Below, piece after piece: positions 36,676-61,139 of a DNA stretch of 64,000 bases (within the stretch, counting starts at the first letter, position 1; each line of letters opens with the position of its first letter). The stretch is from NCBI GenBank assembly GCA_049320885.1, contig JBMORA010000001.1:114622-178621 (forward strand), given 5' to 3'. A program made the position numbers and the translations under genes. Source of the stretch: Thermodesulfobacteriota bacterium. Its GTDB lineage: Bacteria; Desulfobacterota; Desulfobacteria; Desulfobacterales; SURF-7. Below the pieces are notes generated by a model that searched no databases, was not told where the DNA came from, and saw nothing but the letters and a program-made list of their open reading frames with translations.

Positions 36676-37374
36676 ATGATCAAGGCACCTCACGCTGGAT
36701 ATGGAGCGGCCCATTCGTTCCTGCTGCTGCTGGCGCTGCTGATGTTGCGCGGCTGCGAACCCGGAATGGTGGACGATGCGGTGCTCAACGATTTCGAGTC
36801 GGACGCGGATCTGGACGCGGTGCGCTGGACTTGCGGCCGGCTGTACGCCCTTTCGGAAAACCATGCCACGTCCGGACAAAAATCCCTGGTCATGACCCTG
36901 TATCCGGCTGCCTATCCGGGACTGGCCCTGAGGCTGCGGCAAACCGACTGGCGGGGATTCACCCATCTATGCATGGATATCTTCAATCCCCAACCGGAGA
37001 CATTGTCCATCACGATCCGGGTGGATGACCGCGAGGAGTATCCGCCATATGCGGATCGCTTCAATCAGAGCTTCTCGATGGCACCGGGTAACAATCACCT
37101 GGAGATACCGTTGAACAGCCTGATCACCTCCGGCTCCCGGCGGCCCCTGGACCTGGAAAACATCCGGCGGTTTTTATTTTTCATGGTGGATACGAAACAG
37201 ATCTATCACTTCCATGTCGACAACATCCGTCTCGTGAATGTGCTATCCTTCAACACTGTTTCTCACTCAATCACATACCGGACGACGGTCCACGTCCCGT
37301 TGTCATACAACACCCTGCCGGCATACTGCTTTGCCAGTTCCTTCCTGGTTGCCTCGTCCAGTAGAAATACATAG
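36676..37374 (+). CDS. Putative lipoprotein with a galactose-binding/CBM-like domain
   Basis: Lipobox-like LLMLRGC, LNDFE, DWRGF..L..DI.NP, VDNIRL; the 3' end overlaps the convergent gene. Confidence 0.62.
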   Translation: MIKAPHAGYGAAHSFLLLLALLMLRGCEPGMVDDAVLNDFESDADLDAVRWTCGRLYALSENHATSGQKSLVMTLYPAAYPGLALRLRQTDWRGFTHLCMDIFNPQPETLSITIRVDDREEYPPYADRFNQSFSMAPGNNHLEIPLNSLITSGSRRPLDLENIRRFLFFMVDTKQIYHFHVDNIRLVNVLSFNTVSHSITYRTTVHVPLSYNTLPAYCFASSFLVASSSRNT

Positions 37375-39356
37375 TTTCTCTTCATCAGGACATCCGGGAT
37401 CCGGTATCCCTGGTACACGGCTTCCACGGTCCTGACCCTTTCCTCGATCTCCGCCTTCCCCAGGTATTTGCCCACCTTGCCGAAACGATACCCCTCTAAA
37501 TAAACAGGCCGTTCCGCGAACGTACTGGTCTGGTAGGCCACGGGTCGGCCGTTTTTCAGCTGAATGAACGGCGTGACCACCATGGTGTCCCGGGGAGTGT
37601 TCTCGCGGATATATTGCAGGGCCGCGTAGAGTTTCGGGGTAATAGTCTGATGGGCTTTTCGATAGTCGGTTTTGGAAAATTTGGCATCCATGGCCTGCCC
37701 GATTCTGCCGTACATGAAAAAATTATACGCATAGTCCTTGCGCACCCAGTTCGGCAGGCTCACAAACGGCAACGCCAGGATCACCAGTGCCCCGACCAAT
37801 CCATACAGCCGGCCGTTTCGGTAATAATCGGCCAGCAGGAAAAACACGTTTTCCCTTGCCAGATAGGACACGAAAAACAGATCCAGCAGGAAAACCGCGC
37901 TGGTGATGAAATAGGCCGTATCCTGGGGCCCCAGTCGGATACTGTAGGTGATGGCCAGGGAGCCGAGGATAACAAAGAGAATTTTGGTGTGATTCTCCTC
38001 CATACCAGCGGTTTTCATCCAATAGGGCACCAGCAGGCGGTATGAAAAATACAGCAACAGATAGATGGGCAAAATGCAAATGGTAAATACGGCATGGGCC
38101 GGGAGTTGAAACGATTCCGGCACATATTTGTAAATCACGTCCAGAAACGGCCTGGAAAAGGCATTGCCGGTTACGTATGAAAGCGGAACCAACCAGGCGC
38201 CGGACTTGCCCGCCACCTTATCCACCAGCACCTGCCCCCGAACCGGCAGCCAGAAAAAAGCGCCGTAGGCCGCGGCGAACCCCGTGAGGCCGCCGCCGAT
38301 ATCGGCCAGGTCCCGCCCATTGAACCGCTTCCGGGCAACCTGAAAAACTCCCCAGAAAAGCATACCGGCTGCAAGCGAGGCGCCGATGGAGCCTTTTGCC
38401 GCCGTGGCCAGAAAAAAGCCTGTCAGATAGACCAGGAGGCTGCCGGTTTTGGTATAGCGACCGCTATGGATCATCAGATGGATCACCGTAAAAAGCAGGA
38501 TAATCCCCATGAAATTGGTATTGCTGTTCAGATAGGAGTTGACCTTGACCTCATGAACCAGGGAGAAGCCCCCGCCGAAAAGCAGCACCGCCAGGCCATA
38601 AAATAGATAGGCCCGTTTACCCTTGACGAATTGTTGGAGAAGAAGCGCCATGTTCAGGATCAGAAACGGCACCAGCGGCACGAAACCATATTGCAGGCCC
38701 ACCATATGAGGGACCAGTCCGGTCACAAGCGCCAGGTGCGCGCCGAGAATGTGCACCAGGATATGATAGCCGACACCGGGACGACTCTCCACGTTCAGGG
38801 ACTTGAGGGGAAAGTCCGACACCAGGGAGACCGTATGCCCCGCATTCCAGACATGATCATGGAAAATATCCAGGGGCAGCAGGCCGGGCGTTGCCCTGGA
38901 CAGAAAAAACAGCCCGTTGAGAATCAGAACGAACAAGAGAAAAACCGCAAGGGTCCAGCCGGACAAAGCCGCGGCGGCGCGGAAATGGTATCCCGCGGCA
39001 TCCCGGAAAAGGTTCCTGAACGGCCCGGCTAAAAATGCAAGCATTGGCCAGACAACCCCGTAATAAAAACCAGGGAGTCCCGTCAACTGGCCGGCAAGAT
39101 AGGAGGCGCATACATTGGCCAGGCCGAAGATGGTCGCCAGGGGAAGGAGGGTGTCCCAGGCCGGTTGATGCGTGAAATCCCGCTGGAAAAACCGCAAAAA
39201 AACCAGGGCCATGATATATCCCGGCAGGAGCACTGCGACGAAAAAATGGCCCAGGGCCAGAAACACGCCGTCCAAACCGATGGCAAACAGATAAAAGAAC
39301 GCCAGGTTGGCGGCCAGCAACCCAATGGAAACCCCGATGGCAAGAGCTCTCATCAT
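37263..39356 (-). CDS. Polytopic membrane protein, possible GT-C-fold glycosyltransferase
   Basis: About 13-15 hydrophobic segments, periplasmic-like loop DIFHDH..YH, soluble C-terminal ALQYIRENTP; RBS aaaaggag before ATG 39356/39353. Confidence 0.6.
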   Translation of the reverse strand: MMRALAIGVSIGLLAANLAFFYLFAIGLDGVFLALGHFFVAVLLPGYIMALVFLRFFQRDFTHQPAWDTLLPLATIFGLANVCASYLAGQLTGLPGFYYGVVWPMLAFLAGPFRNLFRDAAGYHFRAAAALSGWTLAVFLLFVLILNGLFFLSRATPGLLPLDIFHDHVWNAGHTVSLVSDFPLKSLNVESRPGVGYHILVHILGAHLALVTGLVPHMVGLQYGFVPLVPFLILNMALLLQQFVKGKRAYLFYGLAVLLFGGGFSLVHEVKVNSYLNSNTNFMGIILLFTVIHLMIHSGRYTKTGSLLVYLTGFFLATAAKGSIGASLAAGMLFWGVFQVARKRFNGRDLADIGGGLTGFAAAYGAFFWLPVRGQVLVDKVAGKSGAWLVPLSYVTGNAFSRPFLDVIYKYVPESFQLPAHAVFTICILPIYLLLYFSYRLLVPYWMKTAGMEENHTKILFVILGSLAITYSIRLGPQDTAYFITSAVFLLDLFFVSYLARENVFFLLADYYRNGRLYGLVGALVILALPFVSLPNWVRKDYAYNFFMYGRIGQAMDAKFSKTDYRKAHQTITPKLYAALQYIRENTPRDTMVVTPFIQLKNGRPVAYQTSTFAERPVYLEGYRFGKVGKYLGKAEIEERVRTVEAVYQGYRIPDVLMKRNYVFLLDEATRKELAKQYAGRVLYDNGTWTVVRYVIE

Positions 39357-39448
39357 GACTCCTTTTGTTCTGGTCTCCCGCCTTGGCGGAAGCAACGGAA
39401 GAAGGACCTGTCGGCGTGTCACTCTATAGAAGGAACGGGATTGTTATA

Positions 39449-39539: not shown

Positions 39540-39576
39540 CGTGTTCCCCGTGCGCCATCGGCGCACAGGGAACACG
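39540..39576 (-). terminator. 3' hairpin of paralogue 1 (terminator or stabiliser)
   Basis: cgtgttccccgtgcgcc-atc-ggcgcacagggaacacg; no clear poly-U tail. Confidence 0.55.
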
Positions 39577-39585
39577 GATGGAACG

Positions 39586-41769
39586 CTACCTCATGGAAGG
39601 CGGCAGTTGGGTGAAATCATAATATTCGTAAAGACCGGTGTGAACGGAATTGAGATAGGTCAGCAACTGCTGGTCTGTATACCCATCGACGACATAACGC
39701 TTGATGAATCCCGTTTCAGCGCCGTTTTGCGAATTCCAGTTGGTGTAGAACATCCGGCCCTGGTGGAAGGTGTCGATATAGTATTTCCCGGAAAAGCAGG
39801 TGTTGAAGAAGATCATCTTGTATTTGCAGTCTTCCGGCTGGATGTCCTTGCTGTTGGTGGCATCTATGATGGTCTTGTTGCCGTACCGGGAGTCCTCGAA
39901 ATGGGACCGGTATTCGTCCTGGTTGTCGATGCGGGAGGACTGCCGGGTGTTGGCGGGGTTGACCGCGGACAGATAATCCGCGATCATCCGGCCGCTGCCA
40001 CTGCCGGTAAGGGTCACGGTGACCGCACCCTCCACCACCGGATAGGTGCCGATGGAAGCAGTCACATAATTGCCGGCCGGTGTGTCGGCGGGTTCCCGCT
40101 GGTTCAGGGTGACGGTCCCAAGCACGGTGTTGTTCTGTTGGATGGTGTAGGTCACGGCTGTATCATTGTTCGGATCCGGGTCATAGGTGACGGAAAAATC
40201 ATAGGTGCCGGCCGGATTTCTGGTAGGATAGAATGCCAGGGTATACGTGAAGGTGTCCGCAATCGTCTGGTTGGGGGTGAAACTGTAGGTATACCCGCGG
40301 AATCCATAGAGGGTGCTGTTTTTCTGCACCGCCCAGTTGCCGCTGTATTCCACGTGGCTGAATTCCGGTTTTGAGTTGACGATGAAATAACTCGGGTTGT
40401 TCACCGGATTCGGCTTGGCGCCCGTGGGGGAATACCAAGCCGAGCCGCTGCCCTGGAAGCGCTCGAGGTATTGGCCGTTGGACGAGGCTTCCACCCGGTA
40501 GTGGGTGGGATCGCCCGGCAGGGTATAGGTCAGGTAATAATTGTAAGCCGGCAGGCGGCCCGCCGGATCATCCCAGCCATAGGGCCATTTGGCGTCGCTG
40601 CCGTCCTGATAGATGGGCGTCCAGTTGGGATAGGCCTGGCTGTAGCGGAACCCGGCGGTGGTGACATCCACCATGTCCGAGGAGCAGTTGAAGATCAGGT
40701 TGTCGTCCACATAACGCACATTCTGGAGCGCGGTGTTAAACGGCGGGAAGGTCAGGCCCAGACCGTAATTGGAATGCCCGCGGATCAGGATCACGGCGCC
40801 CTCTTCCCGGACTGCAGCCAGGAATTGTTCCTTGGTCTTCACCGGGTGGAAGAAATAGGTCACCCCGTTTTTGGGACTGGTGTAACGCCAGATCCCGTCC
40901 ACCTTGACGGCGCCGTAGCGCGACAGGCTCTGGCCGGCCACTTCCGCGAAATTGGAAATGCCGCCGTAAATTTCCACGCAGTAGATATTTTCCGACGCGG
41001 AGGTCAGTTTGATGTAGGCCTCCTTCACCATGGTATCGCTGCCGAACTCATTGGAAGCGGTCAGGCTGACGGTATAGTCACCGTCTTGGTCATACACATG
41101 GGCCGGATTCTCCTCGAAGCTGGTCTGACCGTCACCGAAATCCCAATACCATTCGGTGGCCGCGCCGCCGGTGCTCAGGTCCGTGAACTGGATCGTGGCA
41201 GGCGCACCGCCGATGGTTTTATTGGCGGAAAACTCCGCCACCGGCGGCAGGGTGTTGATCACCTCGGTGAACTTCACCGCATCGGCGCAGGTGGTATAGG
41301 TGCTGTTGGTGCCGGTTATGGTGACTGTGTATACAATACCGGCCACGAAGGAATAGGTTCCAAGGACATTCCATTGCCCGCCGTTGACGCGCTGGTTGAC
41401 CCGGACCGTGGCGGTTCCGTTGGCATGCCGGATGGCAATGGGCGCGCTGGTCACCCGGTTGGCAAACACCGTCCACCAGGCGGAGACTTCATATTCGGCT
41501 GTGGTGGGCGGAATGAAGGTATAGGTATAGGTCGCATTGTTTTTGGCATAGATGCTGTCCACACCATAGGGATCCACGCCGCTGGAAACCAGCCACGTAC
41601 CGGTATAGGACGTTTCATTGTCGCCGTTGTCGATGATGATGTCGGCCGCGGCAGAGGCGAGCCCCACCACCATAGACAGTGTTAACAGGATAAATATACT
41701 GAATATACGGGCCGGAACCGGCCTCCATCTCGCATTTTTCTTTTCCGTGATGTTTCTGAAAGTGTTCAT
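39586..41769 (-). CDS. Secreted golvesin/Xly-CBD-like + PKD protein, 1 module (727 aa), putative His-Cys peptidase-like C-terminal region
   Basis: RBS ggag, signal peptide (ASA-), IIIDNGD..TGTW..YEVSAWW..VNQR.NGGQW..ADAVKF, PKD WYWDFGDG, GHSNYG and FFNTCFSG. Confidence 0.82.
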   Translation of the reverse strand: MNTFRNITEKKNARWRPVPARIFSIFILLTLSMVVGLASAAADIIIDNGDNETSYTGTWLVSSGVDPYGVDSIYAKNNATYTYTFIPPTTAEYEVSAWWTVFANRVTSAPIAIRHANGTATVRVNQRVNGGQWNVLGTYSFVAGIVYTVTITGTNSTYTTCADAVKFTEVINTLPPVAEFSANKTIGGAPATIQFTDLSTGGAATEWYWDFGDGQTSFEENPAHVYDQDGDYTVSLTASNEFGSDTMVKEAYIKLTSASENIYCVEIYGGISNFAEVAGQSLSRYGAVKVDGIWRYTSPKNGVTYFFHPVKTKEQFLAAVREEGAVILIRGHSNYGLGLTFPPFNTALQNVRYVDDNLIFNCSSDMVDVTTAGFRYSQAYPNWTPIYQDGSDAKWPYGWDDPAGRLPAYNYYLTYTLPGDPTHYRVEASSNGQYLERFQGSGSAWYSPTGAKPNPVNNPSYFIVNSKPEFSHVEYSGNWAVQKNSTLYGFRGYTYSFTPNQTIADTFTYTLAFYPTRNPAGTYDFSVTYDPDPNNDTAVTYTIQQNNTVLGTVTLNQREPADTPAGNYVTASIGTYPVVEGAVTVTLTGSGSGRMIADYLSAVNPANTRQSSRIDNQDEYRSHFEDSRYGNKTIIDATNSKDIQPEDCKYKMIFFNTCFSGKYYIDTFHQGRMFYTNWNSQNGAETGFIKRYVVDGYTDQQLLTYLNSVHTGLYEYYDFTQLPPSMR

Positions 41770-41880
41770 AGTCTCCGTTCTCCCATTGTTATCTTGATAC
41801 AAACAAGGATCATCATGTTGCGTGAATCCGGCCCACATCCATGGGCCGCATCCTTCCTGCTTTATGTACGGCATCAGTAG

Positions 41881-41896
41881 AGCAATAGGCATGCCA
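41881..41896 (-). promoter_or_regulatory. Sigma54 promoter
   Basis: The minus strand reads TGGCATGCCTATTGCT (GG-N10-GC). Confidence 0.78.
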
Positions 41897-42189
41897 CCCG
41901 CCCCTGCCGGTCACAAAGAAATCCATTGTTATATTATTATGTAATTTGAAATATTTATAATATTTCAAAATCGAGCGGTTCCGACATGCAACCGGCTTGT
42001 GTAATTGTTTTCCTATTTATCATGTACCATTTTACCGATATGCAGCACCTTACCGACTCATTTCTGCAACCCCGTTCCGTTGCAGGGAGGCATCCCACTC
42101 ATTTTTTGCAGCACCAGGGGGTATCCAGATGCTATCGTTGGAGTTTCTTGTGGATGAATGCGGCTGGCGCGGATGGCCGGGTGGGATCG

Positions 42190-42227
42190 TGCTCCCCGTG
42201 CGCCTGACAAAGGGCGCACGGGGAACA
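42190..42227 (-). terminator. 3' hairpin of paralogue 2
   Basis: tccccgtgcgcc / ggcgcacgggga stem, homologous to 39540-39576. Confidence 0.55.
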
Positions 42228-42238
42228 GGGCTGGCCTG

Positions 42239-45088
42239 CTACCTCATGGAAGGCGGCAGCTTGGTGAAATCATAGTATTCATACAGGCCCGGATGTACGG
42301 AATTGATATAGGTCAGCAATTGCTGATCCGAATATCCATCCACGACATAGCGTTTGATGAATCCCGTTTCCGCGCCGTTCTGCGAATTCCAGTTGGTATA
42401 GAACATCCGGCCCTGGTGGAAGGTGTCGATGAAATATTTCCCGGAAAAGCAGGTGTTGAAGAACATCATTTTGTACTTGCAGTCTTCCGGCTGGATGTCC
42501 TTGCTGTTGGTGGCATCCAGGATGGTCTTGTTGCCGTACCGGGAATCCTCGAAATGGGACCGGTACTCATCCTGGTTGTCGATGCGGGAGGACTGCCGGG
42601 TGTTAAGGGGATTGACCGCCATCAAATAGTCCGCGATAATCCGGCCGCTGCCGCTGCCGGTAACCGTAACAGTCACAGCCCCTTCCACCACGGGATAGGT
42701 GCCAAGGGAAACGATTACATACTTGGCTGCCGCCGTATCCGCGGGTTCCCGCTGATTCAGGGTCACGGTCCCGAGCACGGTGTTGTTCTGTTGAATGGTA
42801 TAGGTCACGGCCGTGTCATTGTTCGGATCCGGGTCATAGGTGACCCGAAAATCATAGGTTCCTGCCGGATTTCTGGGCGCATAGAATGCCAGGGTATAGG
42901 TGAAGACATCTGCTCCCGTCTGGTTGGGGGTATAGCTGTAGGTATATCCTATGAATCCATAAAGCGAGCTGTTTCTCTGGGCGGCCCAGTTGCCGCTGTA
43001 TTCCACGTGGCTGAATTCCGGTTTCGTGTTCACAATAAAATAACTCGGATTGTTCAACGGATCGGGCTTGGCACCGGTGGGGGAATACCAGGCCGGGCCG
43101 CTTCCCGCGAAGCGCTCGAGGTATTGGCCGTTGGACGAGGCTTCCACCCGGTAATGCGTCGGATCGCCTGGCAGCGTGTAGGTCAGGTAATAATTGTAGG
43201 CCGGCAGGCGGCCCGCCGGATCATCCCAGTCATAGGGCCATTTGGCGTCCGTTCCGTCTTGATAGATGGGGGTCCAGTTGGGATAGGCCTGGCTGTAGCG
43301 GAACCCGGCCGTGGTCACATCCACCATGTCCGAGGAACAGTTGAAGATCAGATTGTCGTCCACATAGCGCACATTCTGGAGCGCGGTGTTGAACGGCGGG
43401 AAGGTCAGGCCCAGACCGTAATTGGAATGCCCGCGGATCAGGATCACGGCGCCCTCCTCCCGGACCGCCGCCAGGAACTGTTCCTGGGTCTTGACCGGAT
43501 GGAAGAAATAGGTCACGCCGTTTTTGGGGCTGGTGTAGCGCCAGAGTCCGTCCACCTTGACGGCGCCGTACCGCGACAGGCTCTGGCCCACGACTTCCGC
43601 GTAGTTGGTGATGCCGCCGTAGATTTCAACACAGTAGATGTTTTCCGACGCAGAGGTCAATTTGATGTAGGCCTCCTTCACCATGGTGCCGCTGCCGAAC
43701 TCATTGGAAGCGGTCAGGCTGACGGTATAGTCACCGTCTTGGTCATACACATGGGCCGGATTTTCCTCGAAGCTGGTCTGGCCGTCGCCGAAATCCCAAT
43801 ACCATTCGGTGGCCGCGCCGCCGGTGCTCAGGTCCGTGAACTGGATCGTGGCGGGAGCGCCGCCGGAGGTTTTATTGGCGGAAAACTCCGCCACCGGCGG
43901 CAGGGTGTTGATCACCTCGGTGAACTTCACCGCATCGGCGCAGGTGGTATAGGTCGTGGAAACGCCGGTTATCGTGACTGTGTAGACCATTCCGGCTACA
44001 AAGGAAAAGGTCCCCAGGGAATTCCATTGTCCGCCGTTCAGGCGCTGGTTGACATAGACGGTTGCTGTTCCGTTTGCATGCTGGATGCGTATCGGCGCGT
44101 TTGTGACCCGGTTCGAATAGTAAGTCCACCAAGCGGACACTTCATATTCGGTAGTGGTGGGTGGAATGAAGGTATACGTATAGGCGGCATTGTTCTTGGC
44201 ATAAACGCTGTCGACGCCGTAGGGATCCACCGCAGTGGAAACCAGCCAGGTTCCGGTGAAGGAAGTGCCATTGTCCCCATTGTCGATGATGACTTCACCC
44301 GGATCTCCGCCGGTTCCGGCGCTGATGGTGATGTAGGCCGTCTTGACAGCCGTATCGCTGCCGAATTCATTGGCGGCGGTGAGGGTCACGGTGTACACGC
44401 CTTCCTGCTCATATACATGGGCCGGATTCTGTTCGGTACTGGTCTGGCCGTCGCCGAAATCCCACAGCCAATCCGCAGGAATACCGCCCGTGCTCCGGTC
44501 GCTGAACTGGATGGTGGAAGGAACCCCGCCGGTGGTCCTGTCCGCTGAAAAATCGGCTGCCGGCGGTAGCGTATTGATGATTTCGGTGAATTTCACCGCA
44601 TCCGCGCAGGTGGTGTAGGTGCTGTTGGTGCCGGTGATGGTGACCGTGTACACAACCCCGGCGACAAAGGAGAAGGTCCCCAGGGAATTCCATTGCCCGC
44701 CGTTCAGACGCTGGTTGACATAGACGGTTGTTGTTCCGCTGGCGTGCTGGATGCGGATCGGCGCGCTGGAAACCCGGTTCGAAAAATAGGTCCACCAGGC
44801 AGACACCTCGTATTCCGAAGTGGTCGGCGCCGTGAAGCTATAGGTATAGGTTGCGTTGTTTTTACAGTAGATGCTGTCCACGCCATAGGGGTTGACACCG
44901 CTCGATACCAGCCAGGTTCCGGTTGCGGAAGTCCCGCTGTCGCCGTTGTCAATGATCACATCGGCTGATGAACTGGCGGCTCCGAACACCAGCGAAAGGG
45001 ACAGCATGATCACAACCGGTAAAAAATAGGCGTGCAGCTGCCTTGGCCTCATTTTTTTCTTTTGCAAATTATTCTTGAATGAATTCAT
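42239..45088 (-). CDS. Secreted golvesin/Xly-CBD-like + PKD protein, 2 modules (949 aa)
   Basis: RBS ggagga, signal peptide (SSA-), two CBD+PKD modules, the same C-terminal region ending YEYYDFTKLPPSMR. Confidence 0.82.
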   Translation of the reverse strand: MNSFKNNLQKKKMRPRQLHAYFLPVVIMLSLSLVFGAASSSADVIIDNGDSGTSATGTWLVSSGVNPYGVDSIYCKNNATYTYSFTAPTTSEYEVSAWWTYFSNRVSSAPIRIQHASGTTTVYVNQRLNGGQWNSLGTFSFVAGVVYTVTITGTNSTYTTCADAVKFTEIINTLPPAADFSADRTTGGVPSTIQFSDRSTGGIPADWLWDFGDGQTSTEQNPAHVYEQEGVYTVTLTAANEFGSDTAVKTAYITISAGTGGDPGEVIIDNGDNGTSFTGTWLVSTAVDPYGVDSVYAKNNAAYTYTFIPPTTTEYEVSAWWTYYSNRVTNAPIRIQHANGTATVYVNQRLNGGQWNSLGTFSFVAGMVYTVTITGVSTTYTTCADAVKFTEVINTLPPVAEFSANKTSGGAPATIQFTDLSTGGAATEWYWDFGDGQTSFEENPAHVYDQDGDYTVSLTASNEFGSGTMVKEAYIKLTSASENIYCVEIYGGITNYAEVVGQSLSRYGAVKVDGLWRYTSPKNGVTYFFHPVKTQEQFLAAVREEGAVILIRGHSNYGLGLTFPPFNTALQNVRYVDDNLIFNCSSDMVDVTTAGFRYSQAYPNWTPIYQDGTDAKWPYDWDDPAGRLPAYNYYLTYTLPGDPTHYRVEASSNGQYLERFAGSGPAWYSPTGAKPDPLNNPSYFIVNTKPEFSHVEYSGNWAAQRNSSLYGFIGYTYSYTPNQTGADVFTYTLAFYAPRNPAGTYDFRVTYDPDPNNDTAVTYTIQQNNTVLGTVTLNQREPADTAAAKYVIVSLGTYPVVEGAVTVTVTGSGSGRIIADYLMAVNPLNTRQSSRIDNQDEYRSHFEDSRYGNKTILDATNSKDIQPEDCKYKMMFFNTCFSGKYFIDTFHQGRMFYTNWNSQNGAETGFIKRYVVDGYSDQQLLTYINSVHPGLYEYYDFTKLPPSMR

Positions 45089-45204
45089 ATTCATCCTCCG
45101 ATGGTTGTTGTCCCGCTTGGAAACAAGAATGCGCCATATTTTATGAATCCACCTGTCATCCATGTGGCGCGAACTTCCTAATTTTTCCTGTATGAACGTT
45201 TTAA

Positions 45205-45220
45205 CGCAATAGACATGCCA
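45205..45220 (-). promoter_or_regulatory. Sigma54 promoter
   Basis: The minus strand reads TGGCATGTCTATTGCG. Confidence 0.78.
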
Positions 45221-45501
45221 GCCCCGATACCAAAAAATGACGGGAAAATCAATTTTAATTTCTATTTTATTCAAACGAGTTATAAAATATTGCCGTCCAG
45301 CCGCGCTGGCCCGGAAAGAACTATGCAATATTTTTCCTATTTATTGTGAAAAAATATACCGAAATAGCACCGGTCCGTTATAGTCCAAATTCTGATTGAT
45401 CTCTATCGGCTTTTTTCAGATGGGAGCAGTCGCGGATGACAGGGAGGGTTCCGGTTTCCAGTGCATCCATCAAGGACGAACCGGAAACCGGGAATGGCCC
45501 G

Positions 45502-48500
45502 CTACCGCATGGAAGGCGGCAGTTTGGTGAAATCATAGTATTCATACAGGCCCGGATGAACGGAATTCACATAGTCCAGCAACTGCTGATCCGAATATCC
45601 ATCCACCACATAGCGTTTGATGAATCCCATTTCAGCACCGTTTTCCGAATTCCAGTTGGTATAGAACATCCGTCCCTGATGGAAGCTGTCGATGAAATAT
45701 TTCCCGGAAAAACAGGTATTGAAAAACATCATTTTGTATTTACAGTCTTCCGGACGGATGTCCTGGCAATTGGTGGTGTCCAGGATGGTCTTGTTGCCGT
45801 ACCGGGAGTCCTCGAAATGGGACCGGTATTCGTCATTGTTGTCGACCGCGAAGAACTGCCAGGGGATGGCCGGATTGAATGCCGCCAGACCATCCGCGAT
45901 CATCCAGCCGCTGCCGCTGCCGGTCAGGGTAACGGTGACCGCGCCTTCCGCCACGGAAAAGGTTCCAAGAGAGGCGAGCACATAACTCCCGGCCGGTGTG
46001 CCGGCGGGTTCCTGCTGGTTCAAGGTCACGGTGCCGAGCACGGTATTGTTCTGTTGAATGGTGTAGGTCACGGCCGGGTCATTGGTCGGCTCCGGATCAT
46101 AAGTGACTTTGAAGTCGTAGGTACCGGCTGGATTTCTGGGTGCGTAAAACGTCAGGGTATAGGTAAACGTATCGGCGATTGTCTGGTTGGGAGTGTAGCT
46201 GAAGGTATATCCCGCGATCCCATAAAGGGTGGCGTCTTTCTGCACCGCCCAGTTGCCGCTGTGCTCCACGTGGCTGTATTCCGGTCTGGTATTGGCGATG
46301 AAAACCTCCGGATTGCTCACCGGATCGGGCTTGGCGCCCGTGGGGGAATACCAGGCCGGACCGCTGCCGGCGAAACGCTCAAGGTATTTTCCGGTGGAGG
46401 AGGATTCCACCCGGTAGTGGGTGGGATCGCCCGGCAGGGTGTAGGTCAGATAATAATTGTAGGCCGGCGTGCGGCCCGCCGGATCATCCCAGGCATAGGG
46501 CCAAATGGCGTCCGTGCCGTCCTGGTAGATGGGCGTCCAGTTGGGATAGGCCTGGCTGTACCGCAGACCGGCCGTGCTGACGTCCACCATGTGGGAGGAA
46601 CAGTTGAAAATCAGGTTGTCGTCCACATAACGCACATTCTGGAGCGCGGTGTTAAACGGCGGGAAGGTCAGGCCCAACCCGTAATTGGAATGCCCGCGGA
46701 TCAGGATCACGGCACCCTCCTCCCGGACCGCGGCCAGGAACTGTTCCTGGGTCGTGACCGGATGCAGAAAATAGGTCACGCCGGTATTGGGATTGGTATA
46801 GCGCCAGATGCCGTCCACCTTGACGGCTCCGTACCGCGACAGGCTCTGGCCGGCGACTTCCGCATAATCGGTGATGCCGCCGTAAATTTCCACACAGTAG
46901 ATATTTTCCGACGCGGAGGTCAGCTTGATATAGGCCGCCTTCACCATGGTGTCGCTGCCGAATTCATTGGCAGCGGTCAGGCTCACGGTATACTCGCCCT
47001 CCTGCTCATACACATGGGCCGGATTCTGCTCGGTGCTGGTCTGGCCGTCGCCGAAATCCCACAGCCATTCGGTGGCGTTACCGCCGGAGCTCAGATCCGT
47101 GAACTGGATGGTGGCGGGTGCGCCGCCGATGGTCTTGTTCGCTGAGAAATCAGCTGCCGGTGGGAGCGTGTTGATGATTTCGGTGAATTTCACCGCATCG
47201 GCGCAGGTGGTATAGGTGCTGTTGGCACCGGTGATGGTGACCGTGTACACAACCCCGGCGACAAAGGAGAAGGTCCCCAGGGAATTCCATTGCCCGCCGT
47301 TCAGACGCTGGTTGACATAGACGGTTGCAGTTCCGCCGGCATGCTGGATGCGGATCGGTGCGTTGGTGACCCGGTTCGAAAAGTAGGTCCACCAGGCGGA
47401 AACTTCATATTCAGCCGTGGTGGATGGAATGAAGGTATATGTATAGGCGGCATTGTTCTTGGCATAAACGCTGTCGACGCCGTAGGGATCCACTGCAGTG
47501 GAAACCAGCCAGGTGCCGGTGAAGGAGGTGCCATTGTCCCCGTTGTCGATGATGACTTCTCCCGGGTCTCCGCCCGTTCCGGCGGTAATGGTGATATAGG
47601 CCGTCTTGACAGCCGTATCGTTGCCGAATCCATTGGTGGCGGTGAGGGAGACGGTGTACACGCCTTCCTGCTCATATACATGGGCCGGATTCTGTTCGGT
47701 GCTGGTCTGGCCGTCGCCGAAATCCCACAGCCATTCGGTGGGGATACCGCCCTCACTTTGATCGGTGAACTGGATGGTGGCAGGAGCGACACCGGTGGTT
47801 CTGTCCGCTGAGAAATCGGCTGCCGGTGGGAGCGTGTTGATGATTTCGGTGAATTTCACCGCATCGGCGCAGGTGGTGTACGTGCTGTTGGCGCCAGTGA
47901 TGGTGACCGTGTAGGTTATTCCGGCGACAAAGGAGAATGTCCCCAGGGAATTCCATTGGCCGCCGTTCAGGCGCTGGTTGACATAGACGGTTGTTGTTCC
48001 GCTGGCATGCTGGATGCGGATCGGAGCGCTGGAAACTCGGTTCGAAAAATAGGTCCACCAGGCAGATACCTCATATTCGGACGTTTTCGGCGCCGTGAAA
48101 CTGTAGGTATAAGCGGCATTGTTCTTGGCATAAACGCTGTCAACACCGTAGGGATCCAGCGCGGTGGAAACCAGCCAGGTTCCGGTTGCGGAAGTTCCAT
48201 AATCCCCGTTGTCGATGATGATTTCCCCCGGGTCGCCGCCTGTTCCGGCGGTAATGGTGATGTAGGCCGTCTTGACAGCCATATCGCTGCCGTATTCATT
48301 GGCGGCGGTGAGGGTGACGGTGTACACGCCCTCCTGCTCATACACGTGCGATGGATTCTGCCCGGTGCTGGTCTGGCCGTCGCCGAAATCCCACAGCCAA
48401 TCCGTGGGAATACCGCCCGTGCTCCGGTCGCTGAACTGGATGGTGGCCGGAACCATGCCGGTGGTCCTGTCCGCTGAAAAATCGGCTGCCGGCGGGAGCG

Positions 48501-49017
48501 TATTGACAATCTCGGTGAACTTCATTGCATCGGCGCAGGTGGTGTACGTGCTGTTGGCGCCGGTGATGGTGATTGTGTAGGTAATTCCGGCGACAAAGGA
48601 GAATGTCCCCAGGGAATTCCATTGGCCGCCGTTCAGGCGCTGGTTGACATAGACGGTTGTTGTTCCGCTGGCATGCTGGATGCGGATCGGGGCGCTGGAA
48701 ACCCGGTTCGAAAAGTAAGTCCACCAGGCAGACACCTCGTATTCCGAAGTTGTCGGCGCCGTGAAACTGTAAGTGTAGGTGGCATTGTTCTTGGCATAAA
48801 CGCTGTCAGCGCCGTAGGGATCCAGCGCGGTGGAAACCAGCCAGGTGCCGGTGGCGGAAGTCCCGCTGTCGCCGTTGTCGATGATGATGTCAGCCGCTTC
48901 ACCGGCCGTTCCAGCCGCCAATGTCAGGACCAGCATGATAACCACATGGAACAAAGAGGTCTGTAACCGCCAAAGCCACATGTTGTTCTTTTCCGCGTTG
49001 TTTCTGAATCTGTTCAT
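45502..49017 (-). CDS. Secreted golvesin/Xly-CBD-like + PKD protein, 3 modules (1171 aa)
   Basis: Signal peptide, three CBD+PKD modules joined by TAGTGGDPGE, the same C-terminal region; the MNRFRNN start parallels MNTFRN and MNSFKN. Confidence 0.82.
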   Translation of the reverse strand: MNRFRNNAEKNNMWLWRLQTSLFHVVIMLVLTLAAGTAGEAADIIIDNGDSGTSATGTWLVSTALDPYGADSVYAKNNATYTYSFTAPTTSEYEVSAWWTYFSNRVSSAPIRIQHASGTTTVYVNQRLNGGQWNSLGTFSFVAGITYTITITGANSTYTTCADAMKFTEIVNTLPPAADFSADRTTGMVPATIQFSDRSTGGIPTDWLWDFGDGQTSTGQNPSHVYEQEGVYTVTLTAANEYGSDMAVKTAYITITAGTGGDPGEIIIDNGDYGTSATGTWLVSTALDPYGVDSVYAKNNAAYTYSFTAPKTSEYEVSAWWTYFSNRVSSAPIRIQHASGTTTVYVNQRLNGGQWNSLGTFSFVAGITYTVTITGANSTYTTCADAVKFTEIINTLPPAADFSADRTTGVAPATIQFTDQSEGGIPTEWLWDFGDGQTSTEQNPAHVYEQEGVYTVSLTATNGFGNDTAVKTAYITITAGTGGDPGEVIIDNGDNGTSFTGTWLVSTAVDPYGVDSVYAKNNAAYTYTFIPSTTAEYEVSAWWTYFSNRVTNAPIRIQHAGGTATVYVNQRLNGGQWNSLGTFSFVAGVVYTVTITGANSTYTTCADAVKFTEIINTLPPAADFSANKTIGGAPATIQFTDLSSGGNATEWLWDFGDGQTSTEQNPAHVYEQEGEYTVSLTAANEFGSDTMVKAAYIKLTSASENIYCVEIYGGITDYAEVAGQSLSRYGAVKVDGIWRYTNPNTGVTYFLHPVTTQEQFLAAVREEGAVILIRGHSNYGLGLTFPPFNTALQNVRYVDDNLIFNCSSHMVDVSTAGLRYSQAYPNWTPIYQDGTDAIWPYAWDDPAGRTPAYNYYLTYTLPGDPTHYRVESSSTGKYLERFAGSGPAWYSPTGAKPDPVSNPEVFIANTRPEYSHVEHSGNWAVQKDATLYGIAGYTFSYTPNQTIADTFTYTLTFYAPRNPAGTYDFKVTYDPEPTNDPAVTYTIQQNNTVLGTVTLNQQEPAGTPAGSYVLASLGTFSVAEGAVTVTLTGSGSGWMIADGLAAFNPAIPWQFFAVDNNDEYRSHFEDSRYGNKTILDTTNCQDIRPEDCKYKMMFFNTCFSGKYFIDSFHQGRMFYTNWNSENGAEMGFIKRYVVDGYSDQQLLDYVNSVHPGLYEYYDFTKLPPSMR

Positions 49018-49125
49018 TACGTCCGCCCCCGGGTTTGTTATCTGAATCACTAAATGGTTTTGCCTGTTACAGCGTCAATCCGCCAGCACCTATGGTATCT
49101 ATTATCAATAGCGCCCCATCGCAAA

Positions 49126-49141
49126 AGCAATAGACATGCCA
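49126..49141 (-). promoter_or_regulatory. Sigma54 promoter
   Basis: The minus strand reads TGGCATGTCTATTGCT. Confidence 0.78.
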
Positions 49142-49370
49142 GTGCCCCATGCGAGCCATAAAAAAACATTGTTCTATTTTACGGGGTTACAATGCGGGAA
49201 AAAAACGGCAGCTGTTTCAAGGGGAAACTATGCACTATTGTTCCTATGCTATGTACTATTTTTCGTATTATTATATAAAATTTTAACCATATACAAACCT
49301 GCCCACCTGCCTTAGGCAGGACGCTATCCGTTGCCGGGCATCCTTCCCCCAGCCGTTTTTCCATCACGGA

Positions 49371-54216: not shown

Positions 54217-56349
54217 CTACCAATACCAGCCGATCGTGCCGGTCACCCCCCGCACATTGTCATAGTCGACCTGGATGACAATCGGCCATTTCAGATACTC
54301 CGGGAAATAACTCAGCCCCCCGCCATAGAGGGCCTGAATTTTGCTGTCCGACGATTCCTCATAGATTCGCCCCGTGGCTTCCGAGCGGGAAAGCTCGCTT
54401 TCGGTGTATATGGTGCACCCGCCGATGGCCGACAGGTAGAGATCGGTGGAACCGATCTCCACCCCCAATTTGCCGAGCAGGCCGAATTCGGTTCCCTTTC
54501 TCTCACTCTCCAACCGGATGCAATCATCATTGGGACATGGCGAGGAAATCGTTGGCTCCGGGAGAGCCCTGTCGCTATGGGGAATAAACGGGATTCCGAC
54601 TCCGAACAACAGGTTCAGATTGCCGAGGCGGATTTCATTGGCACCGGTTTCCACCGTGACATTAAATTCATCCGCCTCGCCGCCGCCGCCGCCGCCCGCG
54701 GCAAAATATCCTGCCCGGGCGGGAGTGGTCATGGACAGAAGCCCCACCAGCAGGAACGACCAAATGATCAGCCGGGTTCTCCTTGCGGCCCGTGCGGCCG
54801 CGATCACCAGGAATAGGGCGGACGCGAGCAGAAAGAGGCCATGCCGCCCTTCATATGCACTGTCTGATATGCTGGACGGCGACAGGGCGCCGATAAAGCA
54901 ACCACCGATGTCCACAACGGGAAGCGCCTCGTCCGGCCGCACCGTAACGGTGGTCGTGTCCGTATGCGATATGCCGGATCCGGTTGAGACGGTTAACTGA
55001 AACTGGAGGACAACCCCACTGGCGCCTCCCAGGGGCGCCACAAAAGAGGCAACCCGGCCCTCCGGTTCTTTCAACCTGACTGTGGGTCCGGAGGTTTGCC
55101 GCCATTGATAGACCGCGGTCCCGTCCGGATCATAGGAGCTGCTTCCATCCAACGTCACCTCCTGATCGGCGAAGGCTTCCTGATCCGCGCCGGCGTCCGC
55201 CACCGGGGGGTAGGACAGGCTCGATCCGGCTCCAGCAAAGGCCTCACCGGCAATCGGCTGGTATTCGACAACGGGTAAGCGGTAGTCATTGTTGTGATCA
55301 TAAATCGAATTGTCGATGACTGTCGAATCGGCGGTCCCCCACCAGTTGCCGGTCATCGCCAGTGTGGACAGGCTTTCCGCCCAGTCGTAGGTATATACGA
55401 TGTATCCGGGATAGCCCTCCAGACTGAAATTGTTTCCCGTGATCCGCAATTCAAAAGCGGCCGCGTCCGCAACGCTGACGGCGATAAGACCGACGACGGA
55501 ATGTTCGGCCTGCAACTCATTGGCGGTGATGCCGATTTCGGCCGGAGTTACCGGACCATCGGAAACAGTGGCGTTGAAAACAAGCCGCATAGCGCTTCCG
55601 ATGGCATTCGAATCCGTGTCGACCACCGTATTGTTGACCACCTGAAGATCATGGGAACGGATGGAGAAATCCAAGGCCCGCTTGTTATTCAACAAATAAT
55701 TGTCGGCGACAAGCCCTCCCTCGGCTGAAAACAAAATGCCGGTTGCATTGCCGTAGATCTGGTTTGAAACGATCCGGATATCACCGCTGGGGGAAATGAG
55801 GTTGCTTGAATTGGCTGCGGCGGTGGATGAGATCCCCGCCGAGGAACTGAACCGAATCGCATTGCCGACAATATAGGGCATGGCGTTGGCGGTGACAATC
55901 ATCCCGGTGACATCGGGATCATTTCCGCCATACTCGACGATGCAATAGGCGATTACGCTTCCGGTTCCGGTGGATTCGTTATAATCCCGGCTGCTGTCAC
56001 TGAAGACAATCGCCCCCCAGGGAATCCGCCTGTCCAGACTGGTAAACACAATGGGGGTAGCGGGGGTTCCCCTGGCGACAAGGGTCCCCTCCACCCGGAT
56101 GGTGTGCCCCCGGCTGCCGTCCGGACGCGGCGTGAAAATCACCTCCACACCGGGTTCAATGGTCAGGACGGCGCTCTGTTCGATCAGAACATCGCCGGTT
56201 ATGACGATGGGGCTGTCCGATACATTCCAGCCGGTGTCCGAACTGATGACACCGTTGAAATTCATGGAGGCGAACACGGATAACGGTCCGCCCGACACCA
56301 GGATCAGCATCAAGAAAGACCCGACGACAAGGCCTTTTCGTATTCGCAT
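54217..56349 (-). CDS. Secreted beta-helix + PKD/REJ-like protein with internal GGCFI motif and C-terminal putative outer-membrane beta-barrel
   Basis: Signal peptide, LTIEPGVEV, parallel beta-helix-like repeats, NWWG, PVADAGADQ..LDGSSSYDPDG..WRQTSGP, GGCFI + TM, terminal GWYW. Confidence 0.72.
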   Translation of the reverse strand: MRIRKGLVVGSFLMLILVSGGPLSVFASMNFNGVISSDTGWNVSDSPIVITGDVLIEQSAVLTIEPGVEVIFTPRPDGSRGHTIRVEGTLVARGTPATPIVFTSLDRRIPWGAIVFSDSSRDYNESTGTGSVIAYCIVEYGGNDPDVTGMIVTANAMPYIVGNAIRFSSSAGISSTAAANSSNLISPSGDIRIVSNQIYGNATGILFSAEGGLVADNYLLNNKRALDFSIRSHDLQVVNNTVVDTDSNAIGSAMRLVFNATVSDGPVTPAEIGITANELQAEHSVVGLIAVSVADAAAFELRITGNNFSLEGYPGYIVYTYDWAESLSTLAMTGNWWGTADSTVIDNSIYDHNNDYRLPVVEYQPIAGEAFAGAGSSLSYPPVADAGADQEAFADQEVTLDGSSSYDPDGTAVYQWRQTSGPTVRLKEPEGRVASFVAPLGGASGVVLQFQLTVSTGSGISHTDTTTVTVRPDEALPVVDIGGCFIGALSPSSISDSAYEGRHGLFLLASALFLVIAAARAARRTRLIIWSFLLVGLLSMTTPARAGYFAAGGGGGGEADEFNVTVETGANEIRLGNLNLLFGVGIPFIPHSDRALPEPTISSPCPNDDCIRLESERKGTEFGLLGKLGVEIGSTDLYLSAIGGCTIYTESELSRSEATGRIYEESSDSKIQALYGGGLSYFPEYLKWPIVIQVDYDNVRGVTGTIGWYW

Positions 56350-59615: not shown

Positions 59616-61139
59616 ATGAAAGTAAACATGCGTTGCCACGAAGTGAAGGAACTGCCGAAACTGGCATGGATCGCCTCTCATGAACTTGGTTCCGGGACAA
59701 TCACCGTCTGCCATGGTTCCGCCGTGGAATACGGAGATACCTGGATCGTGGAAGGCGTGTGGGACAATGACTTCCATTCGGCCGATTTTCACACAAGCGA
59801 CATTTTTTTTGGCAGCGGCATCCGGGTCGACGACGAGACGATCCATTTCGTTCCCTCGAGGGCCTTGGTGGACAGAATCGTATACTGCCGTAACGACCGG
59901 CGTCTGATCGTGTCCAACAGTCTCGTCGTGCTTATGGCCCATACCGGCGCACGCCTGAATCTGGAACATGATTACCGGTCCGAAGCGTTCACGATCCTTG
60001 ACGGCGTCAAAAAGTATAAACGGGAATTTTCCATCCTGCATCCGGAAATCACCTGCTTTTACCAGTTGTTCCGCCACAATCTCTTGGTTACCGGTGAGGC
60101 GATCTCCTTTTCGGATGAAAAGGAGTCCAGACCGATCCGCTCGTTCGCAGAATACCATGGTCTTATGACGGAAACACTGGAGAGGATCAGGCGGAACTAC
60201 GAAAGCAGCGACAGGAAGCACCCGGTTTCGACCTTCACCACCATGTCGTCCGGATACGACTCCACCGCCGTATCGGCGCTCGTCAGCAAGATCGGGGTGG
60301 ACGATTGTTTTACCAGTAAAATGAGCAATTCGATTCTGCCGGCCTGGCTCAGCCCCAGAATCGCCATGGACGACGGAAGCCCCGTGGCCGAGTCCTTGGG
60401 CTATACCGTTCACTACCTGGATCATGACAACATTTCCGAGGACGAATTATACTTTCTGGCGGCAAGTTGCGCCGGGCCGGAGTCGGTTTATTATTCTTTG
60501 GCCCGGAAAATTTATTCCGATTGCCAGGTCGGATTGGTTTTCACCGGATATCACGGCGATGTCATGTGGGATCTGAAACTGAAACCCGGAGAATCCGGGG
60601 GCGACATCATACGTGGGGACACATCCGGATTCAATCTGGCGGAAATCCGCTTGAAAAGCGGGTTCATTCATGTGCCTGTTCCCTTCATGTACGCGAGCAG
60701 CGTCAAGGATGTTGTGGGAATCAGTCTGTCCGAGGAGATGTTTCCGTGGCGCCTGTTCAACGATTATGACCGGCCTGTCGCAAGACGCATCCTGGAAACT
60801 TCCGGCGTGCCTCGAAATTATTTTGGATTCCGCAAAAAAGGAGTCACCAGGTATTACAACTACCCCAAGAACATGAAACTGAGAAGGCGGTTTTTCACGT
60901 TTCTGAAACAGCAGCAACAGACATCATCCCTCCTCGTTTATGCCTATGCTTTTTTCGTTCACTACCCCGTCCTGATCCTGATGGGCGTGCTGTACAATAT
61001 CGGGCTTGGGAAAATCATCGACAAAAATCGGCGGCCGGGATTGGATTTGTCCAGGAAAATGTTCGTGTGGGCGGCCAATTCATTGGCTGAAACCACTGCT
61101 CACGACTGCAACGGATTCTCCATCGGTGAAGCTCCATGA
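59616..61139 (+). CDS. Asparagine-synthase-like N-type ATP pyrophosphatase, divergent
   Basis: PP-loop MSSGYDS, FTGYHGD, VPF, YDRPVARRI; no N-terminal catalytic Cys. Confidence 0.6.
   Translation: MKVNMRCHEVKELPKLAWIASHELGSGTITVCHGSAVEYGDTWIVEGVWDNDFHSADFHTSDIFFGSGIRVDDETIHFVPSRALVDRIVYCRNDRRLIVSNSLVVLMAHTGARLNLEHDYRSEAFTILDGVKKYKREFSILHPEITCFYQLFRHNLLVTGEAISFSDEKESRPIRSFAEYHGLMTETLERIRRNYESSDRKHPVSTFTTMSSGYDSTAVSALVSKIGVDDCFTSKMSNSILPAWLSPRIAMDDGSPVAESLGYTVHYLDHDNISEDELYFLAASCAGPESVYYSLARKIYSDCQVGLVFTGYHGDVMWDLKLKPGESGGDIIRGDTSGFNLAEIRLKSGFIHVPVPFMYASSVKDVVGISLSEEMFPWRLFNDYDRPVARRILETSGVPRNYFGFRKKGVTRYYNYPKNMKLRRRFFTFLKQQQQTSSLLVYAYAFFVHYPVLILMGVLYNIGLGKIIDKNRRPGLDLSRKMFVWAANSLAETTAHDCNGFSIGEAP

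Follow-up and report, generated by a model that had tools for sequence, protein, structure and literature searches.

A stretch of 64,000 nt (the window) of contig JBMORA010000001.1, assembly GCA_049320885.1, from a Thermodesulfobacteriota bacterium contains three neighboring minus-strand paralogues, here called genes 1, 2 and 3, within a locus for exopolysaccharide (EPS) synthesis. Their products, of 727, 949 and 1171 amino acids (aa), carry one, two and three copies of a unit made of a carbohydrate-binding module (CBM) and a PKD domain in front of a shared C-terminal region. We consider it moderately probable that the three are tandem paralogues specific to this lineage and belong to an unannotated family of secreted cysteine peptidases of clan CD that are directed to polysaccharide. 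The computed basis of this proposal is the fold of the C-terminal region, a His and a Cys at the canonical positions, the CBM and PKD domains, linkage to EPS genes, purifying selection, and monophyly of the paralogues; from these we infer secretion beyond Sec, ligand, substrate and activity. Coordinates, all given as window positions, are collected in Table 1.

The shared C-terminal region (471 aa, 83–92% identity among the three genes) is predicted to be a catalytic domain of the caspase/haemoglobinase fold (clan CD). A model of this region built from a 75-row alignment has a predicted local distance difference test score (pLDDT) of 93.2 and a predicted template-modeling score of 0.90; a single-sequence model of the C-terminal region has a pLDDT of 36. 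In the 75-row model, strands at residues 2–10, 47–54 and 70–74 lead to His76, a strand at 396–400 leads to Cys402, and strands at 416–420 and 458–462 follow, with helices flanking. Thus, the His immediately follows core strand three, and the Cys core strand four. Clan CD is defined by a His at the end of strand 3 and a Cys at the end of strand 4 (accessible part of PMC4357240), and because the secondary structure of the model fits this arrangement, the core appears to place its dyad as the clan does. A central sheet of at least six strands with flanking helices, also expected of the clan, is present in the model as judged from secondary structure rather than from strand order in the coordinates, and the fold matches agree.

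When the model was compared with 48,161 PDB representatives, the best 50 rows comprised 41 matches to a CBM inserted in the core and 9 that reach from one end of the model to the other. All nine end-to-end matches are clan CD-type structures (Z 8.7–11.5, root-mean-square deviation (rmsd) 3.0–3.8, 140–166 residues aligned). The best is SAVED-CHAT 8tl0 (Z 11.5, rmsd 3.3, 162 aligned), and the others are four separases (Z 9.3–9.9), DdvA (9.5), which presumably holds a CHAT domain, the asparaginyl peptide ligase OaAEP1 (9.2), C11 iotapain (9.2), and legumain (8.7).

Conservation singles out the same two residues. His332 of gene 1, in the motif GHSNYG, is kept in 102 of 103 aligned relatives and Cys658 in 107 of 108, and the remaining Cys residues of gene 1 are not conserved. 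The dyad persists among relatives of ~30–40% identity, in which the neighbors around the Cys are variable. Both the N-terminal and the C-terminal half of the conserved domain are carried by 108 of 162 homologues. Between the halves, the 99 cores placed in a tree have a CBM and two PKD domains (59), one CBM (24), no insert (13), or something else (3); the 13 cores lacking a CBM/PKD insert therefore indicate that the two halves form one domain. Some relatives consist of little beyond the core. Five short, divergent relatives (P0141, P0146, P0148, P0160 and P0162) have the same His/Cys motifs with a different, shorter insert and no CBM; some of this group look like lipoproteins, and P0148 bears a distant fused partner domain.

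The CBM located between His and Cys is closest in structure to the C-terminal domain of a Paenibacillus xanthan lyase (6F2P; Z 16.1, rmsd 2.1, 124 aligned), which we take to be CBM84. MiXBM (7EHG) matches with Z 11.7, and CBM35/CBM6 domains are grouped with the same fold. The CBM profile match has an E-value of 2e-22, and the inserted copy shows 20% identity. The units in front of the core combine Golvesin_C (PF25275) with PKD and measure 222 aa, or 214 aa when adjacent to the core. A prior examination of the letters alone (the sequence-only reading) had counted one, two and three golvesin-like plus PKD modules; this count stands for the part before the C-terminal region, but one further CBM lies inside that region, so that PF25275 exceeds its cut-off in two, three and four stretches of genes 1, 2 and 3. 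Paenibacillus CBM84 and MiCBMx improve xanthan binding by a xanthanase (accessible part of PMC10049358), and lectins with a domain of this kind have been reported (PMC9166713, in the sections available). The CBMs of the three proteins probably bind polysaccharide. They share their fold with the xanthan lyase domain, which is joined to a glycan-cleaving domain there and to a peptidase-like one here. Because the closest CBM structure comes from xanthan lyase, it is worth noting that polysaccharide pyruvyl transferase genes lie beside homologues in two loci (L026 and L031); none was detected in the window. Genes with CBM and PKD domains and no catalytic core adjoin the enzyme gene in two other loci (L037:4006-8493 and L019:13967-17950).

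Each protein begins with a 42-aa leader that has a basic n-region, a hydrophobic stretch and a small-residue end, and that by inspection looks like a Sec signal peptide. The proteins end in ...YDFT(Q/K)LPPSMR. No PEP-CTERM tail (PEP motif, transmembrane helix and basic tail) was found in the C-termini or by Pfam for all three and NCBIfam for gene 1, as the sequence-only reading had said, and no membrane or sorting anchor is visible in them. Open reading frames (ORFs), Pfam and alignment likewise bear out the gene lengths, the 666-bp steps between them, the module numbers before the core, and the similar C-terminal regions that it described. The exact steps depend on a start of gene 2 at the ATG at 45088, which has GGAGG 6 nt upstream; an alternative ATG is at 45094. 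We rejected an assembly artefact as the source of the array, given that its modules diverge by 11–25% at the nucleotide level, that its longest exact repeat is 107 bp, and that both intergenic junctions are bridged by contigs of run X1 that match them with 0 differences (depth 18, compared with 22 in the flanks). X1 is possibly the source sample, and its contigs bridge the junctions singly rather than covering the whole array. Long antisense ORFs over gene 2 (42158-44548, +) and gene 3 (45436-47145, +) are probably shadows of codon bias.

Homologue searches returned 27 proteins when sequences were clustered at 90% and 312 when they were clustered at 50% (E to 0.001), and the best 150 of the 312 were examined; many weaker matches cover the CBM only. 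The core is present in 6 of 401 genomes of the order, this genome included, and is absent from 60 relatives, among them two other genomes of the genus (one weak, CBM-only match). Further loci occur in Nitrospirota, Planctomycetota, Verrucomicrobiota, deltaproteobacterial genomes and one Prolixibacteraceae record, for a total of 22 distinct loci; the collection scan was seeded with 8 sequences, and this sample leans to one clade. The distribution of the family is therefore rare, patchy and spread over several phyla. A polysaccharide gene, recognized by BLAST against the EPS proteins of the window, is found in the flank of 13 of the 22 loci versus 8% of 1962 random 21-kb segments of this genome, a comparison that sets blastp against tblastn and includes kin loci that are not independent. 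Pfam assignments for 126 of 233 neighboring ORFs shorter than 1000 aa added three loci with nucleotide-sugar or Wzm/Wzt genes. In total, 16 of the 22 loci have polysaccharide genes nearby, in agreement with the EPS linkage and secretion claimed from sequence and contrary to the unlinked homologues that the earlier reading had named as evidence against itself. A link to exosortase was considered and rejected: PF09721 occurs in 12 of 22 carrier genomes, in which 4 of 23 matches plus one more are weak and partial, versus 71 of 151 genomes of the order.

Most relatives have a companion. A conserved helical, HEAT-like protein of ~200 residues with the motif RxCDxAYNQLV is present in 16 of 22 loci, downstream of the enzyme or fused to it. 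In 13 loci (for example, L019:11069-11770 and L018:1129-1893) it has a gene of its own and an apparent signal peptide, and in three (L028, L031 and L033) it is fused, as it is in further database proteins. HEAT_2 is matched weakly by 8 of the 16 partner proteins. Strong partner matches occur in 3 of 401 genomes of the order, two of which are enzyme carriers; none was found in this genome, which is 98% complete. In a midpoint-rooted tree, the window genes belong to a clade (support 1.0) whose members of known context come from three genomes and all lack the partner, whereas the other clade has it at 17 of 21 loci. A predicted complex of core and partner (from L019) scored high, but so did the control. 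The partner is a candidate inhibitor, chaperone or adaptor.

The genes also share upstream elements. The pattern TGGCATG[TC]CTATTGC, a 15-mer of the sigma54 -24/-12 type derived from the three sites themselves, has three matches in the 5.6-Mb genome, one before each gene and none elsewhere, and rpoN is encoded in the genome. An AT-rich 18-mer common to all three genes lies 103–110 nt upstream of the -24 site and has no other match in the genome, its pattern likewise having been built from these three sites; this candidate activator site was not found before the seven PEP-CTERM genes detected. Hairpins of about -35 kcal/mol per 75-nt stretch occur 3' of each gene. None of the three has a U-tract, and a terminator scan reports none of them. 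The proposal of separate sigma54 transcription units consequently fares unevenly: each gene has its own -24/-12 site and hairpin in a genome with rpoN, but the hairpins look unlike standard terminators on both of these counts. It is plausible from the sequence that each gene is its own unit. We also considered whether the hairpins form a dispersed repeat family and rejected this, as a 16-mer has only six matches at ≤2 mismatches, two of which are the hairpins themselves.

Table 1. Positions of the gene array and associated features in the window.
Feature	Position	Strand	Remarks
PEP-CTERM/exosortase-type EPS locus around the array	1964-61139		Pfam, NCBIfam
Gene 1, 727 aa	39586-41769	-	2184 bp; leader, one CBM+PKD module, split predicted clan CD domain (His332, Cys658)
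Gene 1, CBM+PKD, one module	41002-41643	-	
Gene 1, C-terminal region	39589-41001	-	predicted caspase/haemoglobinase-fold core, interrupted by ~130-aa family-specific subdomain and CBM; model, fold search, conservation
Gene 1, CBM between His and Cys	39952-40362	-	fold and profile
Gene 2, 949 aa	42239-45088	-	2850 bp; leader, two modules, split predicted clan CD domain (His554, Cys880)
Gene 2, CBM+PKD, two modules	43655-44962	-	
Gene 2, C-terminal region	42242-43654	-	92% aa identity to gene 1
Gene 2, CBM between His and Cys	42605-43015	-	same insert as in gene 1
Gene 3, 1171 aa	45502-49017	-	3516 bp; leader, three modules, split predicted clan CD domain (His776, Cys1102)
Gene 3, CBM+PKD, three modules	46918-48891	-	
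Gene 3, C-terminal region	45505-46917	-	83-84% aa identity to genes 1 and 2
Gene 3, CBM between His and Cys	45868-46278	-	same insert as in gene 1
Sigma54-type -24/-12 site before gene 1	41882-41896	-	5' end 41896
Sigma54-type -24/-12 site before gene 2	45206-45220	-	5' end 45220
Sigma54-type -24/-12 site before gene 3	49127-49141	-	5' end 49141
AT-rich 18-mer, candidate activator site	42000-42017, 45324-45341, 49252-49269	-	common to all three genes; sequence only
3' hairpin after gene 1	39540-39576	-	no U-tract
3' hairpin after gene 2	~42190-42227	-	no U-tract
3' hairpin after gene 3	~45449-45491	-	no U-tract

The surrounding locus encodes Wzc, a priming transferase, Wza, exosortase, EpsI, Wzy, two Wzx, GT2/GT4 and FemAB-like proteins, together with ATP-grasp, AsnB-like, CoA ligase, MBOAT/GDSL and DegT proteins. 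Genes at 37263-39422 (-), directly downstream of gene 1, and at 59616-61139 (+) encode multi-pass membrane proteins that neither Pfam nor NCBIfam assigns to a family. A 710-aa secreted protein (54217-56349, -) has a beta-helix-like N-terminus, a PKD domain and an in-frame barrel-like C-terminal part, with an internal GC-F-I-x hydrophobic segment that by eye resembles a sorting signal. Adjoining a metallophosphoesterase gene is one for an unannotated 232-aa protein (36676-37374, +), which by eye resembles a small lipoprotein of beta-sandwich type.

If the clan CD proposal is correct, sigma54 and one activator would switch on the three genes together, and Sec would export their products. The xanthan-lyase/CBM35-like CBMs would hold the enzymes on the cell's own EPS, with the PKD domains as spacers, and the CBM in the loop after the catalytic His would present the enzyme to a glycan-associated substrate. 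The His-Cys dyad would then cut peptide or amide bonds in envelope or matrix proteins, in maturation, turnover or release.

Several observations weigh against this proposal. Pfam sees only one extra CBM in the shared region, and neither Pfam nor NCBIfam recognizes the core. The clan CD Pfam families (CHAT, C11, C13, C14, C25 and C80) and DUF6345 have no match at 1e-4 in the three genes and none to E 1 in 13 relatives, uninterrupted cores included. A core profile matched no clan CD chain in PDB, and a profile comparison with DUF6345, based on three sequences only, gave a nonsignificant probability of 0.3%, though the His motifs aligned. Foldseek, including the VIA second look, gave only CBM matches among the matches listed, so that the core is seen only in the wide PDB search; ESM Atlas offers DUF6345 (0.88) and CHAT (0.87, 41% of members) merely as leads below 0.9. 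Identity to clan CD structures is only 6–14% and the Z scores are modest, and superposition of the dyad is inferred from secondary structure. In five of 22 loci no polysaccharide gene was found, and one more has no flank. Peptidase activity of the family is a prediction from the model, and binding of the CBMs to the host's EPS is assumed from their fold.

Other roles for such a domain can be envisioned. The enzyme might instead be a transpeptidase or amidase of EPS that couples proteins to the polysaccharide, much as PorU couples them to anionic lipopolysaccharide (A-LPS), or that removes or cross-links amino-acyl or amide decorations. This we consider unlikely, and equally so its fuller form, in which the family comprises undescribed secreted clan CD enzymes that, by a route separate from those of PorU and exosortase, staple proteins to EPS or edit its amino-acyl decorations, the fused or adjacent HEAT-like partner controls the enzyme in one clade, and the partner-less clade expanded into paralogues with unequal stalks, including the 1-2-3 array. 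The linkage to polysaccharide loci would suit such a role, as would the CBM that separates the catalytic residues in 85 of 99 cores, the asparaginyl peptide ligase among the fold matches, and the AsnB-like, CoA-ligase, ATP-grasp or FemAB/GNAT enzymes encoded in this locus and in L018, L019, L023, L025, L026, L031 and L038. PorU, a gingipain-family C25 protein proposed to be a sortase, provides a precedent (accessible parts of PMC4560394 and PMC8545088). The exosortase counts argue against it, however (12 of 22 versus 71 of 151), as does the rarity of the family, because an enzyme found in 6 of 401 genomes would not be a core step of this EPS type. In addition, no common sorting signal of a cargo was seen, although no search for one was made. 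A purely structural clan CD-like core in a noncatalytic lectin or adhesin would explain why no sequence match to known peptidases exists and why CBM and PKD domains make up most of each protein. We give this very little weight, since the His and Cys are near-invariant at catalytic positions across relatives of ~30–40% identity with variable neighbors around the Cys, and since some relatives are little beyond the core.

The least probable of the explanations weighed is a conflict system, in which a secreted caspase-like toxin of the Tox-Caspase type is paired with a downstream immunity or inhibitor protein. Its appeal lies in the variable N-terminal repeats, the C-terminal caspase-like domain, the small, dedicated gene that follows the enzyme in 13 of 22 loci, and the patchiness across phyla; C-terminal caspase-like toxin domains and HEAT-repeat immunity proteins are both listed in the accessible part of PMC3482391. 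That same part, however, pairs Tox-Caspase with Imm36/Imm57 rather than HEAT repeats. Polymorphic toxins of this type also carry a variable C-terminal toxin on a constant N-terminus, whereas the present family is built in reverse, with a constant, nonpolymorphic catalytic core behind a variable N-terminus. In 3 of 22 loci, as in additional database proteins, enzyme and partner form a single fused protein, and no partner was found in this genome despite three intact copies of the enzyme. The context is EPS biosynthesis, and PADLOC gave no credible match, merely one weak, short DrmC.

Length itself was the focus of the sequence-only reading, which saw a molecular ruler or scaffold set in the three proteins. 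The family as a whole argues otherwise. Of 22 carrier genomes, 20 have a single copy, one has two and one has four, multiple copies always lie on different contigs (0 of 22 have two copies on one contig), and neither a tandem array nor a ladder occurs in the 22 other carrier genomes. The number of CBMs before the core ranges from 0 to 6 without pattern across 99 cores, truncated proteins included. Homologues that are mostly single-copy and random in module number, which that reading itself had listed as telling against a ladder, are therefore what we found; the predicted catalytic domain is likewise at odds with a scaffold, and a ruler would have no visible anchor from which to gauge depth. 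The ladder is lineage-specific and is not a conserved ruler. Its equal 666-bp steps result from the unit length, and an ordered consecutive series appears in ~6% of three-draw samples from family module counts, a crude estimate because the counts include truncated proteins.

A weaker form, compatible with the peptidase proposal, holds that selection maintains a graded set in which the proteins, with two, three and four CBMs, differ in reach or in how long they stay in the matrix. We find this doubtful, more so than the transpeptidase reading. All three copies are under purifying selection and have their own promoters, and one genome of the same partner-less clade (G570) has four dispersed paralogues (L036, L047, L048 and L049) on four contigs, with 1, 8, 5 and 1 CBMs before the core and no partner, so unequal-length sets arose at least twice. 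Against it stand the absence of an array or ladder in the other 22 genomes, the trivial origin of the equal steps, and the lack of a visible anchor from which to measure.

The history of the paralogues is consistent with local duplication. The three genes are monophyletic (support 0.99), and their nearest outside relatives differ in build. Ratios of nonsynonymous to synonymous substitution rates (dN/dS) are 0.06–0.27 in all parts of the genes; this purifying selection indicates that all three copies function and did not arise recently. Two types of PKD half can be distinguished, core-proximal and distal, with dS of 0.15–0.39 within and ~1.0 between types, and the last module of gene 3 is intermediate. 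Core duplications, at dS 0.4–0.8, are younger than the PKD type split (dS ~1), in keeping with an ancestral gene of two or more modules and a single loss and a single gain thereafter. The CBM halves are mosaic and show no clean history. A clean chimeric origin of the gene 1 module was tested and rejected, the modules being patchwork instead. Thus, the exact 1-2-3 series is probably incidental to gene duplication in this lineage: an ancestral gene carrying two or more module types may have been duplicated, after which entire 666-bp units were lost and gained and patchwork recombination took place. Differences in avidity may help to retain the three copies.

With the two structural hallmarks of clan CD in the model and no Pfam or NCBIfam family, the clan CD proposal makes these proteins a family-level variant of secreted clan CD enzymes. 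They resemble the CHAT/separase, C13 legumain, C11 clostripain and C25 gingipain groups in that the predicted alpha/beta core has six strands, with the His following strand 3 and the Cys following strand 4, and, going by the available portions of the sources, clostripains and gingipains are likewise secreted bacterial members. The present family differs in its GHSNYG motif, its N-terminal CBM/PKD stalk, its linkage to EPS loci, the ~320 residues between His and Cys that include a CBM (plus two PKD domains in 59 of 99 relatives), and the dedicated HEAT-like partner of most relatives. With PorU, as far as the available sections describe it, the likeness is of concept and clan only, PorU being a gingipain-family Cys/His enzyme that works at a surface polysaccharide; no type IX secretion system context was seen in the loci of this family. 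Tox-Caspase toxins, within the accessible description, share the C-terminal caspase-like domain and the small neighboring gene, but differ in that the partner is fused in some members of this family, the context is EPS, and no partner was found in this genome. The PEP-CTERM/exosortase system has sigma54/PrsR-regulated single-gene units with -24/-12 sites (accessible part of PMC1569441). The same kind of locus and single-gene -24/-12 units are found here, but the proteins have no PEP-CTERM tail, the candidate upstream element was not found at the seven detected PEP-CTERM genes, and exosortase is not enriched.

The enzyme family appears to be undescribed. No description was found in the literature searched, which left subscription papers mostly outside, and supplements such as the additional files of PMC3482391 could list members. 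If the proposal is correct, about a hundred sequence clusters whose present label is "PKD repeat protein" or hypothetical would form a new family of clan CD peptidases linked to EPS loci in lineages of anaerobic sediments and biofilms. Its build, in which a carbohydrate-binding module separates the catalytic His from the Cys, would be unusual. The ladder by itself carries little weight, although the three natural length variants are a ready series for relating CBM number to avidity and activity. Protein attachment, maturation and release in PEP-CTERM-type and other EPS matrices are poorly known, and the family would supply a defined enzyme for their study, along with two predicted catalytic residues and a candidate regulator.

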